Positions 7,840 to 19,939 of a stretch of 29,792 nt of DNA are shown piece by piece. Source of the DNA: Fidelibacterota bacterium. Its GTDB lineage: Bacteria > Fidelibacterota > Marinisomatia > Marinisomatales > TCS55. Numbering within the stretch: the stretch's first letter is position 1; every line of letters begins with the position of its first letter. A program made the translations under genes and the position numbers. The stretch covers positions 1-29,792 of the forward strand of contig JBHHTW010000028.1 of assembly GCA_046861385.1 (NCBI GenBank), in the 5' to 3' direction. Below the pieces are notes generated by a model. It made no database searches, was not told the DNA's origin, and was given only the letters and a program-made list of their open reading frames with translations.

Positions 7840-8775
7840 CTATAAATATTTTTTCATTAATTCGTTACAATATTGCTTATCATTTTGCAATTGATTTACT
7901 AACTGTTCTGGTGTGTCAAATTTAATTTCATCACGAATCCTCTCGAGAAACTCAATTTCAATTTCTTTATCGTATAAATCATTAAAGTCTTGTGAAATAA
8001 AGTGAATTTCTGCTACAAAATTCTTCTCATCAAACGTTGGTCTAGTTCCTAAATTACACATTCCATACAATGAGTTGCTATTAATCCTTCCTCTACAAAA
8101 ATAGACCCCATTTTTAGGAAATAGTTGATTTTCTTCTACCGGAACAAAATTTGCTGTCGGAAAAGAAAGCCTCCTTCCCCTGCCGGCACCCTTTACCACT
8201 ATTGCTTTAAAACCATAGACCCAACCAAGCTCAAATGACGCTCGTCTGATAAATCCATCCCATATTAATTGTCGTATGTGTGAACTGGAAAAAATAATCA
8301 AATCGTCTTTGACAGCCTTTACAATTTCACATGTGACTTGTTTACTTTGGCAATATTTTTTTAAAAAGTCCGGCGATCCTTCTCTGTTAAATCCGAAATG
8401 ATGATCATATCCGATAATAATATGATTCGGATTAAAATTGCTAACAACTATATCATCCATAAATTTTCTGGGTGTTATAGTTGAAAAATTCTTTGTAAAA
8501 GGAATAACTAATACTACATCAACATATATTTGTTTTAATAAGGATAGTTTTTTATCAATCGACATAAGAAGAGGCAATGCCAAACCTTTGTCTAAAACAT
8601 GCCGTGGATGGGGATCAAATGTGATGACTACAGACTGAACATTTTGTGTTTGTGCTTTAGATACAACTTTTTTGATAATTTCTTGATGACCGCGATGAAG
8701 CCCATCGAAAGAACCAATTGTCACAATCGAATTCCCCTTCTGTTTTATATCGTTAATAGATGTTAAGACTTCCAT
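7840..8775 (-). CDS. ribF: Bifunctional riboflavin kinase/FAD synthetase
   Basis: [41 protein letters not shown]. Confidence 0.96.
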
Positions 8776-17840: not shown

Positions 17841-17920
17841 TTTAATAATTCTCCTATAATATTATGTGCAAATATATAGACATTATTGTTAATATTTCGT
17901 CTTATTTATGTACCATAATC

Positions 17921-18004
17921 GCCGGGGTGGCGGAATTGGTAGACGCGTTGGTCTCAAACACCAATGGGGGTAACCCCGTGCCGGTTCGACTCCGGCTCCC
18001 GGCA
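17921..18004 (+). tRNA. tRNA-Leu(CAA)
   Basis: GCCGGGGTGGCGGAATTGGTAGACGCG-TTGGT CT CAA AC ACCAA-long variable arm GGGGTAACCCC-GCCGGTTCGACTCCGGCTCCCGGCA; CCA not encoded. Confidence 0.97.
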
Positions 18005-18022
18005 CAATTTTCGATTTTTTTC

Positions 18023-18051
18023 TTGCATCTTCTCATTTAAACTTTTACTTT
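18023..18051 (+). promoter_or_regulatory. Putative sigma70 promoter of the candidate small RNA
   Basis: TTGCAT (18023-28)-17 nt-TACTTT (18046-51). Confidence 0.6.
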
Positions 18052-18057
18052 AAGCGT

Positions 18058-18146
18058 GAAGGTGCTGGTTTGGTACCTTTGGTATGTGGAAGGGGTAGAT
18101 ATTCACTTAGCACCGAGGTCTTCGTGAAATCTACCCCACTTTTTTT
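18058..18146 (+). ncRNA. Candidate structured small RNA with 5'-end/terminator-loop pseudoknot
   Basis: Relatively GC-rich island between a promoter and a T7 tract; stem GGGGTAGAT-(A)-TTCAC / GTGAA-ATCTACCCC; loop TTAGCACC complementary to 5' GGTGCTGG. Confidence 0.65.
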
Positions 18147-18478
18147 ATCTTAATTCCTTTTATACCTTCGGTTGACCCGCCATTTTCGTATAGGTTTTTG
18201 ATACATTCTATCAGCAACTTCACTTCAACTAATTCTTTAAGTTCGTTTTTTGATTCAAGTAAGCGATCCAAAGATTTTTCCAGTAAGTAATCACCACCCC
18301 TTTTTCGGCCACTGCTGTAATTCAAGTAGGCTCCAGTTAACATAATGAGTGGTTTTAAGAATAATTTTTTATTTTCATCTTTGACTTCCTTCCAACAATG
18401 CTCCCAGCTGATGTGAGCTTGATAATATTCCTGATCATTAAAATATTTAATCCCTTTATTGAATAATGCTAAGTCCAT
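18131..18478 (-). CDS. DUF309 family protein
   Basis: GIKYFNDQEYYQAHISWEHCW matches the F-N-...-Y-x-A-H-x-x-W-E-x-x-W pattern of DUF309. Confidence 0.8.
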   Translation of the reverse strand: MDLALFNKGIKYFNDQEYYQAHISWEHCWKEVKDENKKLFLKPLIMLTGAYLNYSSGRKRGGDYLLEKSLDRLLESKNELKELVEVKLLIECIKNLYENGGSTEGIKGIKIKKVG

Positions 18479-18549: not shown

Positions 18550-19053
18550 TTAATTCTTTTTCTTTTTATCCTTCTCAAATACCTTATCAGATACATTGTT
18601 TAGTTCATTTTCAAGCAATGTGAGCTGCTGCTGAATTTCTGATAGTGATTGTGTGGTTTTACGACGTAGTCTTCCAAGATCGTCTTCTAGATCGGCAATA
18701 TCAGTTTCAACATCACCAAACCGTTTAAATGTTTCGCGTTCTACCTCGTCCAGATTGAATTGAACTTCTTCAATCATATCCACCAATGAATCAGCGGTCG
18801 CATTAATTAATTTTGTATTTGCAATAATATTGCGCTGTGCCTGTTGTAAGTGTTTTCCTCTGCCGATAAACTGCAAGTTTAATACTCTGAGGTCTTCCCG
18901 AAATTCATTATGAACAACGTCAACATGCTGTTTATCATTTAGATTTAATTCATCCATACGCTTAATCATTTCCCCGGACATATACTGAAAATAGCCTCCG
19001 GCTAGTATCAATATGACTAAAATACTAAATACAATTTTATCTTTTACTGTCAT
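18550..19053 (-). CDS. Hypothetical protein, N-terminal TM anchor plus long coiled coil
   Basis: 167 aa; hydrophobic IVFSILVILILAGGYF; heptad-like acidic helices; GAGGAAAAGGA upstream. Confidence 0.75.
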   Translation of the reverse strand: MTVKDKIVFSILVILILAGGYFQYMSGEMIKRMDELNLNDKQHVDVVHNEFREDLRVLNLQFIGRGKHLQQAQRNIIANTKLINATADSLVDMIEEVQFNLDEVERETFKRFGDVETDIADLEDDLGRLRRKTTQSLSEIQQQLTLLENELNNVSDKVFEKDKKKKN

Positions 19054-19069: not shown

Positions 19070-19372
19070 TCAGTTACTTAATGTTTCAAGTCGTTTTTCC
19101 CATTCGCTCATTTCTTTTTTCTCTTCTACAGGGGCTTGTTCTTCTGGAGCGGATTCCTCGGTTTTTCCAGCTTTTATATCAGCCAGCATTTTTTCTTTTA
19201 AGGTTGCATTTTCTTTGAGATCGTTCATTAATGAAAGAACTTCGTCATTAAAGTCAGCGATTGTATTATCCAATCGAGAAAGCAATTCACCCGTAAGAAT
19301 TTTGCCGTAATTCTCACTTACCCCTTTTAGAAGTGTCGCAAGTTTTTCACGTAATATATAGTCTTCAGACAT
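19070..19372 (-). CDS. Hypothetical small acidic helical protein
   Basis: 100 aa ORF filling the gap; helical N-terminus, E/A/P linker, C-terminal MSEWEKRLE. Confidence 0.75.
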   Translation of the reverse strand: MSEDYILREKLATLLKGVSENYGKILTGELLSRLDNTIADFNDEVLSLMNDLKENATLKEKMLADIKAGKTEESAPEEQAPVEEKKEMSEWEKRLETLSN

Positions 19373-19447: not shown

Positions 19448-19939
19448 TTACGCATCTATCATAGATTTATCTTTTATACTATGAACTCGTTGTAATTCCA
19501 CCTGTGTTAAACCATTTTTTGAAAATTCATCTATCAGCGGTAAATATATTTTTTTCTGTAATGAATAGGGTAACCAATCGACCGTATCCATTTCCGTCAT
19601 GGACTTCCCACCACCTATAGATGTTTCAGATCCGCGTTTAAAAATATGTTTTTGAGCAATGATGTAGGCTTCCACGCGATCTTCAACTACAATTGCAAGA
19701 GAATAATCATATCTTCGAAAATCTTTTTTTACGGGCATGTTAATTGTTTTGATTAGATAACTCTCTTTAGTAAAAAATTCTATTTCATAACCTAAATTTT
19801 CTAAAACTTGACGACTTATTAACAATGCTTCTTCCTGGGAGACTTGGTATCGAAAGGATCTGACCATTCTTGGTGGATTAGGACAAAAAGAAAACTGCAC
19901 GCTAAGGAGCGCAGCAAGCATGCATCGGGTTGCCAACAT
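19448..19939 (-). CDS. Hypothetical exported protein (possible lipoprotein)
   Basis: 163 aa; hydrophobic N-terminus ending in FSFC; 2 nt from the upstream stop. Confidence 0.65.
   Translation of the reverse strand: MLATRCMLAALLSVQFSFCPNPPRMVRSFRYQVSQEEALLISRQVLENLGYEIEFFTKESYLIKTINMPVKKDFRRYDYSLAIVVEDRVEAYIIAQKHIFKRGSETSIGGGKSMTEMDTVDWLPYSLQKKIYLPLIDEFSKNGLTQVELQRVHSIKDKSMIDA

Follow-up and report, generated by a model that had tools for sequence, protein, structure and literature searches.

A 29,792-nt contig of a Fidelibacterota bacterium (GenBank JBHHTW010000028.1, referred to here as the window; it is the entire contig C39 of a 2.43 Mb genome in 104 contigs that is 97.85% complete) carries on its forward strand, at about 18058–18146, a single-copy gene for a small RNA of ∼89 nt. 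Sequence comparison makes it very probable that this is a real and independent small RNA (sRNA) gene whose product folds into two hairpins, P1 and P2, separated by an invariant linker. The explanation that we favour overall, and regard as reasonably probable, is a stand-alone, single-copy structured sRNA gene that belongs to an uncatalogued family confined to one order of the Marinimicrobia (SAR406) and may act in trans. The family is new in the sense that it has neither an Rfam match nor a description in the literature searched (small or noncoding RNA of Marinimicrobia/SAR406, with subscription journals and supplements lying outside), in which no paper describing a regulatory RNA of this group was found either. 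As a stand-alone bacterial small RNA it is unremarkable in kind; the phylum that carries it is understudied.

The 89-nt RNA has a minimum free energy (MFE) of −33.6 kcal/mol when folded as P1 plus P2 (z = −3.46), and none of 200 shuffled sequences folds as well. P1 (18058–18080, 7–8 bp) consists of the 5′ arm GAAGGUGC (18058–18065), the loop UGGUUUG (18066–18072) and the 3′ arm GUACCUUU (18073–18080). It is followed by the 11-nt linker GGUAUGUGGAA (18081–18091), which is unpaired in both the MFE and the consensus folds and is invariant over alignment columns 28–36 in 85 sequences. P2 (18092–18137), the terminator stem, comprises 14 bp (arms 18092–18106 and 18124–18137, with a bulge at 18100/18101) and is capped by a 17-nt apical part (18107–18123) in which positions 18109–18121, 18110–18120 and 18113–18118 are predicted to pair. 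The tip of P2 bears the invariant, Shine–Dalgarno-like CCGAGGUC (18113–18120), which is kept in types A and B of the RNA (see below).

Comparison of relatives returned the same architecture. Alignment A1 (84 distinct sequences from 133 loci plus locus L007, giving 85 rows and 97 columns) has 35 invariant columns and a mean column identity of 86%. When P1, P2 and the three apical pairs are mapped onto it, 95.2% of the cells are paired and nine pairs change on both sides; none of 500 shuffles reaches any of these measures and slid controls are only 40–47% paired. P1 (columns 6–12/20–26) is paired in all 85 sequences, with AU replaced by UA in three and UA by CG in one, while seven of the 17 pairs of P2 change on both sides, with 95.1% of cells paired and values that 0/500 shuffles attain. 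The apical pair between columns 57 and 69 occurs as UA in 41 sequences, AU in 24 and GC in six. RNAalifold, given no structure, recovered the same helices, corresponding to P1, P2 and the apical pair. A set of 25 divergent members shows changes on both sides in 18 of 25 pairs, among them all eight of P1 (types B and C); the alignment used was fitted to our covariance model R1 and is thus biased towards it. The conserved fold to which these compensatory changes point is P1, the invariant linker and a long P2 with CCGAGGUC at its top.

Upstream of P1, a −35 box TTGCAT (18023–18028, forward strand), of which GCAT is kept in place in most type A loci, is followed after 17 nt by a −10 box TACTTT (18046–18051), which appears as a near-invariant TTACTTTAA in 42 loci. 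From this putative sigma-70-type promoter transcription would start at about 18058, a position set by the −10 box only. In type B the boxes read TTGACA, then, after 17–18 nt, TATTTT, TATCTT or TACTTT, and the sequence around the promoter differs from that of type A; in both types the boxes end about 7 nt before P1. It is mainly this retention of promoter position while the surroundings diverge that argues for independent transcription, and the conserved sequence indicates a promoter of the RNA's own, independent of the neighbouring gene. At the other end, a T7 tract (18140–18146, forward strand) follows P2 and corresponds to a conserved T-rich tail in relatives, at least six T occurring within 10 nt after the stem in 77 of the 85; together with the covarying P2 stem this identifies a predicted intrinsic terminator. 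The initial annotation of this stretch had proposed an independent small RNA and listed the TTGCAT-17-TACTTT promoter, a 14-bp stem with one bulge and a 17-nt loop, and the terminal T7 run. Each of these elements is indeed present in the window, the spacing of the boxes persists in types A and B, and the proposal of independence gains from promoters kept in divergent subtypes and from covariation in both hairpins.

A BLAST search with 18006–18160 against 60 relatives and the genome itself (cut-off E ≤ 1e-10) matched the RNA region in 42 of 61 genomes, with one match only in its own. Four genomes of family f1 without a match are 66–89% complete, and in one of them a contig end cuts the match. 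The conserved block extends over 18037–18146 at 71–99% identity and ends abruptly after the T-run. When three motifs were required to be invariant, a scan of 185,579 species, each represented by a single genome, gave 91 stretches; among the best 80 of these 91, 55 are titled Marinimicrobia, Neomarinimicrobiota or Fidelibacterota and the other 25 are metagenome-assembled genomes (MAGs) with no phylum in the title, no other phylum being named.

Model R1 also recovered the divergent members; its searches of more than 40 genomes used stricter filters and many genomes are incomplete, so zero counts are to be read as 'not found' and not as 'absent'. Across the phylum it matched 19 of 151 sampled genomes, all 19 in the order of the window, and none of 122 genomes from other orders. 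Within that order of Marinimicrobia/SAR406 it matched 89 of 151 genomes: all members of families f1 (26/26), f7 (4/4), f10 (4/4), f14 (4/4), f3 (2/2) and f6 (1/1), most of f8 (24/27), f16 (8/10) and f9 (10/15), some of f5 (2/4), f4 (1/2), f13 (1/2) and f11 (1/9), and none of f12 (0/26), f15 (0/10) or f2 (0/4). The family is order-wide and vertically inherited. Viral contigs gave 0 matches, and carriage of the RNA by phages was rejected on this ground. One public MAG holds two different type A copies on two contigs (L047 and L066), which reflect either a mixed bin or a true duplication.

Searches with Rfam 15 (4227 models, a pass being the gathering threshold of the family) matched only four transfer RNAs (tRNAs) in the entire window. 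Within 17850–18300, at E ≤ 10, the best hit other than a tRNA was mir-254, which scored 21 bits where 70 are required, and ten type B and C loci gave one tRNA and nothing else. No Rfam family matches the RNA, which the initial annotation had been unable to assign.

Three subtypes can be told apart. Type A, found in the window's own genome, in families f1, f7, f8, f10, f14 and f16 and in others, has the P1 arms AAGGUGC/GUACCUU, the linker UUGGUAUGUGGAA, the apical sequence CCGAGGUC and the upstream boxes TTGCAT, 17 nt, TACTTT. Type B (families f9, f3, f5, f6 and f4) has a re-coded P1 (GAGGC/GCCUC) and the linker UCCCGCGAGGUA, which carries a second CGAGGU, on the same P2 with CUCCGAGGUCAU. Type C is a second, weaker match in five f8 genomes and the sole match in two others (L153 1501–1598; L183–L188, about 201–304); it coexists with type A in some f8 genomes and combines a different P1 with a type A-like linker, GUUUGGUAUGUAGAGAA, and a different hairpin top, often UUACCUCAU. 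Type B keeps the loop and changes the linker, whereas type C keeps the linker and changes the loop; from these sequences, linker and loop appear as a pair of exposed and invariant modules, each of which is exchanged between subtypes independently of the other.

Of 24 sequencing runs listed with matching words, 22 showed small word shares only, and four were aligned to the locus, all as assembled contigs. Nearly all cover in the four came from tRNA-Leu look-alikes of other organisms, so run shares are uninformative on the habitat or level of the RNA. A 642-nt contig from a run that is probably DNA spans 17948–18151. A 213-nt contig from a metatranscriptome depleted of ribosomal RNA (rRNA) starts 10 nt before a tRNA-Leu, continues with 126 other letters and ends in 18057–18095, the first 39 nt of the RNA, without mismatch. 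An RNA library thus contains the 5′ portion of this RNA, or that of a relative, joined to a tRNA; its ends and level are not given by this contig.

As to function, transcription would stop at the intrinsic terminator, P2 doubling as terminator hairpin, and P1 and P2 would act as protective scaffolds around two exposed surfaces: the Shine–Dalgarno-like CCGAGGUC at the tip of P2 and the linker, which would remain single-stranded. These modules are proposed as trans contact surfaces because both are invariant, exposed and swapped independently. Through the apical loop, the linker or both, the RNA may pair in trans with a partner RNA, which would be C/U-rich (ACCUC-like), and would do so without Hfq. 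We advance trans action of this kind tentatively, as a serious possibility that falls somewhat short of being the probable outcome. A search for Hfq (PF17209) gave no match in the genome (97.85% complete), although control genomes matched, and genes for CsrA and Ro/TROVE proteins were not found in it either; an Hfq-dependent sRNA was accordingly rejected.

A number of observations weigh against the reading of a discrete, base-pairing sRNA. Complements (8–10-mers) of the loop, the linker and the P1 loop are not enriched in the genome, and a duplex scan of its 4505 candidate start regions was indistinguishable from noise. Of the 12 other GACCTCGG sites in the genome, most lie inside coding sequence, and the single intergenic match, on contig C3, runs antisense to a real ribosome-binding site, that of another gene. 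The operon of p167, a neighbouring gene described below, was rejected as a target, since its best site, 9 matching nt within p167, is not conserved and differs among orthologues by synonymous changes. The paired apical bases G58–C68 and C61–G66 never covary, which fits sequence-specific protein recognition as well as base pairing. The motifs required in the motif scan were forced to be invariant, yet the 42 loci derived from BLAST are equally invariant except for L007. A simple consensus scan listed neither the promoter, the −10 box of which is weak and which matches fewer than nine of 12 consensus positions by our own count, nor the terminator, the 17-nt loop of which exceeds the limit of eight; the support for both therefore comes from conservation in relatives. 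Finally, the 213-nt contig could reflect co-transcription with the tRNA or carry-over of DNA, either of which is possible, in place of a discrete 89-nt species.

The alternative that survives best, which nevertheless appears unlikely, is that the RNA is a decoy: a rigid P2 would display GAGGU as a Shine–Dalgarno mimic and bind, and so titrate, either the anti-Shine–Dalgarno end of 16S rRNA in 30S subunits or a protein that recognises a specific RNA sequence. Types A and B share an invariant GAGGU at the tip, the paired bases that flank it are invariant and do not covary, and the type B linker offers the motif a second time within CGAGGU. The 3′ end of 16S rRNA in a genome of the same family, GGAUCACCUCCUUUCU, is complementary to GAGGU, an authentic start region of the host genome reads CCGAGGUCUAUG and so resembles the loop motif, and no base-pairing target was found. 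Against this, only five contiguous pairs with the anti-Shine–Dalgarno sequence are possible, because covariation within the RNA ties the next loop position to column 57, so that the pairing cannot extend. Each RNA offers one or two sites, far below titrating RNAs such as CsrB, which has many more binding sites. No CsrA, Hfq or Ro gene was found in the genome, no candidate protein partner emerged, and p167, the neighbour in synteny, also occurs in families that lack the RNA.

A broader form of the same idea, which we consider quite unlikely, is that a Shine–Dalgarno mimic on a nuclease-resistant hairpin binds the anti-Shine–Dalgarno tail of 16S rRNA or C/U-rich, anti-Shine–Dalgarno-like regulators. 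These regulators might include the type C paralogue, the frequent loop of which, UUACCUCAU, is complementary to the GAGGU of type A; ACCUC occurs in some type C loops. If this were true, the mimic would set the number of free ribosomes or regulators and act as a global decoy in translation control, which to our knowledge has not been described for bacteria.

The position of the RNA suggests a further alternative. A tRNA-Leu(CAA) gene (17921–18005, forward strand; detected by ARAGORN and as an Rfam tRNA at 55.3 bits) is the usual upstream neighbour and lies outside the RNA, which could thus be a co-transcribed 3′ trailer of this tRNA, serving as a terminator or processing platform and possibly released as an RNA in the manner of 3′ETS-leuZ. 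A tRNA-Leu precedes the RNA on the same strand, within about 115 nt and directly upstream, at 37 of 42 loci, it lies 330–340 nt upstream in two type B loci (L150 and L152), and the metatranscriptome contig described above joins the 5′ part of a tRNA, through 126 letters, to the first 39 nt of the RNA. However, the conserved −35 and −10 boxes lie at fixed spacing between the tRNA and the RNA and are also found where no tRNA is near, and co-transcription would not exclude a promoter of the RNA's own. Among the 42 loci, one has the tRNA at a distance of 972 nt and four show none in the flank examined; among the type B loci none was found within 1.5 kb in L149 and L151, and none was found beside L147, L148 or L153. 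An adjacent tRNA-Leu is thus missing at five of 42 loci and at five of the seven further loci (L147–L153); the RNA is distant from, or without, tRNA-Leu in L030, L031, L037–L039, L147–L149, L151 and L153, and in all of these except L030 none is nearby. Similarity between the RNA and tRNA-Leu is at chance level (local alignment, p = 0.28; in a second test all 25 pairings gave p > 0.1), and ARAGORN and RF00005 detected nothing tRNA-like in 18037–18146. Taken together, this makes the trailer very unlikely, and a trailer RNA of the 3′ETS type, which would have no promoter of its own and always be linked to a tRNA, was set aside. Derivation from tRNA-Leu, or a copy of an attachment site, was likewise rejected, as the alignments do not exceed shuffles.

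The families without the RNA are instructive here. In f12 and f15 a plain short hairpin (8–10 bp) and a T-run come after the same tRNA-Leu, with the end of p167 directly behind them, whereas in the f2 and f11 loci examined neither tRNA nor RNA motifs were found beside p167. Since the RNA occurs without the tRNA, and since f12 and f15 terminate the same tRNA with a plain hairpin, the RNA is not the terminator of tRNA-Leu; it is an extra gene inside an old tRNA-Leu/p167 junction. This agrees with the view of the initial annotation that the element is no plain tRNA terminator. It does resemble such terminators in having a G+C-rich stem and a T-run at the end of the tRNA-Leu unit, but differs from them in its 14-bp irregular stem, the 17-nt top of invariant sequence and the upstream hairpin, linker and promoter.

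p167 is a membrane-anchored coiled-coil protein of 163–176 amino acids without a Pfam family. It is the downstream open reading frame (ORF) in 43 of 90 loci and is convergent to the RNA also in type B and where the tRNA has been lost. Searches detected it in 130 of 151 genomes of the order and, among those of high quality, in 91 of 94; since families lacking the RNA have it too, phyletic coupling between the two was rejected. The protein has an N-terminal membrane helix, a coiled coil and an invariant GRGKH motif, and its gene is convergent to tRNA-Leu or to the small RNA in many families. In the window, an operon-like set of proteins without a Pfam family is encoded on the reverse strand at 18550–19053, 19070–19372 and 19448–19939.

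The ORF next to the RNA in the window is a convergent DUF309 gene (18131–18478, reverse strand; Pfam PF03745, E = 3.5e-11), of which the stop codon TAG (18131–18133) and last codons overlap the 3′ arm of P2 (18131–18137). In other genera such an overlap extends to as much as 43 nt. A DUF309 protein is the first downstream ORF of at least 80 amino acids in only 20 of the 90 loci that have such an ORF, so that conservation of the RNA is not due to this overlap. In a set of 98 distinct loci, the closest ORF on the downstream side with 80 amino acids or more is on the opposite strand and convergent in 87, on the same strand in three and not found in the flank examined in eight. A cis-acting riboswitch or attenuator is ruled out by these orientations and by the lack of any Rfam riboswitch or T-box match at the locus; the initial annotation had likewise judged a riboswitch unlikely because no forward-strand gene follows.

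The initial annotation had further suggested that the 5′ end of the RNA forms a pseudoknot with the terminator loop. The complementarity is present in the window: TTAGCACC (18107–18114, in the 17-nt loop) can pair with GGTGCTGG (18061–18068) through six Watson–Crick and two G–U pairs. On alignment A1, though, pair 10–60 is unpaired in 73 of 85 sequences and pair 13–57 in 51, and none of the eight pairs changes on both sides. A complementarity of eight pairs is not beyond chance, because 1099 of 5000 shuffled loops (22%) reach eight contiguous pairs with the G/U-rich 5′ segment. Loop column 57 covaries with column 69 inside the loop and not with the 5′ segment, which sits in P1 and is fully re-coded in type B. 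The GCACC loop occurs in nine of 85 sequences only, from the window's own genus g1 and genera g4 and g10, most others having GUUCC or GUCC. The homologues that the annotation had asked for were found, whereas covariation of its GGTGCT/AGCACC helix was not. The pseudoknot, rejected as a conserved fold, is a lineage-specific coincidence or, at most, a local alternative, and is not part of the conserved architecture.

A switch between two states was also raised initially: the 5′ arm of P1 would leave P1 to pair with the terminator loop, or the 3′ arm, once released, would pair with the linker or the base of P2, altering termination or accessibility. Within the genus of the window, the pseudoknot helix (−10.5 kcal/mol) roughly equals P1 (−9.5 kcal/mol) in stability. 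The small hairpin TACC-TTT-GGTA is present at 18074–18084 as annotated, and every one of the 85 sequences is able to form the small hairpin of columns 21–24/28–31. The P1 3′ arm can also pair with the first bases of P2, in 98.3% of cells, one pair changing on both sides (G–C for A–U) in two sequences, and type B offers comparable alternatives by eye (CCUC/GAGG, and CCUCUCCC with GGUAGGGG). Neither of these alternative helices covaries significantly, however, the small hairpin showing no changes on both sides and the P1/P2-base helix giving measures that 36–184 of 500 shuffles reach. The uncompensated pseudoknot, with its two central pairs mostly unpaired and its chance-level complementarity, also counts against a switch. 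P1 is transcribed first, P2 contributes most of the −33.6 kcal/mol, far above any alternative helix, and downstream there is no forward-strand gene for read-through to serve. A switch between two folds is hence highly improbable. Pairing between linker and loop (GGAA/UUCC) was rejected too, no compensation being visible in A1, by eye, where either side changes.

Known RNA classes can be dismissed more briefly. A 6S RNA is not indicated, as the two-hairpin fold is unlike the 6S rod and no 6S model matches at the locus; RF00013 and RF01685 (6S-Flavo) matched nothing in the genome, RF01685 missing its control genomes too. The RNA of the signal recognition particle is encoded on another contig (55.1 bits), which disposes of that identity, and a Y RNA was rejected in a genome in which no Ro/TROVE gene was found. 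A likeness to 5S rRNA or to helix 45 of 16S rRNA, seen by eye, has no Rfam match, and sharing an 8-mer with a 1.5-kb rRNA is expected by chance (our own estimate). A gene for a small protein was ruled out: the sole forward-strand ORF reads AUG-UGG-AAG-GGG-UAG, a GUG/AUG after the loop has no conserved frame or stop, and the substitutions are compensatory.

Returning to the favoured stand-alone sRNA, its closest parallels are GibS and MasB of Bacteroides and RsaE/RoxS of Firmicutes, Hfq-independent sRNAs that end in an intrinsic terminator of their own. Like these, the SAR406 RNA has its own putative promoter and measures ∼90 nt; it opens with a hairpin, continues with a conserved unpaired stretch and closes with a terminator hairpin and U-tail, and Hfq was not detected in the host genome. 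RsaE and RoxS display C-rich anti-Shine–Dalgarno loops; in contrast, the exposed motif CCGAGGUC is G-rich and Shine–Dalgarno-like, and the RNA has no sequence or structure match in Rfam. The initial annotation had suggested distant membership in a family of Bacteroidota sRNAs; the host belongs to the Marinimicrobia/SAR406 and not to the Bacteroidota, and the terminator-loop pseudoknots ascribed to Bacteroidota sRNAs could not be traced in the literature searched. 3′ETS-leuZ of Escherichia coli is processed from the trailer of a tRNA-Leu operon and has a regulatory role; the SAR406 RNA is similar in lying directly behind tRNA-Leu, in ending at the last terminator of that transcription unit and in being linked to a tRNA by one RNA contig, but it differs in its conserved promoter, its occurrence without the tRNA in several lineages, its lack of similarity to tRNA and a host in which Hfq was not found.

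Some other features of the genome were noted in passing. A G+C-rich palindromic repeat (TTCCCTGCCNGCC...GGCAGG) has ten strict matches, on contigs C15, C30, C38, C52, C68, C85, C89, C93 and C98; several copies lie just behind tRNA genes, which suggests a family of repetitive extragenic palindromic (REP)-like elements. About ten tRNA genes are preceded, by eye, by TAAATT or TAATTT and then a G+C-rich, CCGCC-like discriminator, so that their promoters look stringently controlled; the small RNA promoter has no such discriminator. On contig C23, at about 8213–8640, a cluster of tRNA-Gln, tRNA-Arg and tRNA-Glu genes is split by short tandem repeats (ACCAGTTACCAATA..., GATTTTT...). Although the MAG is 97.85% complete, searches for 16S rRNA (RF00177) and 6S RNA (RF00013) gave no hit in it; the rRNA probably failed to assemble and the 6S RNA may be divergent in the phylum.

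The Marinimicrobia (SAR406) are abundant uncultured bacteria of dark and low-oxygen ocean waters. The family described here provides a handle on their post-transcriptional control in a setting where Hfq, CsrA and Ro were not found in the genome that carries it. It is ready for inclusion in RNA catalogues, which would improve the annotation of marine metagenomes and metatranscriptomes. Its G-rich, Shine–Dalgarno-like loop is the opposite of the usual C-rich seed, and this makes a decoy-type mechanism testable.

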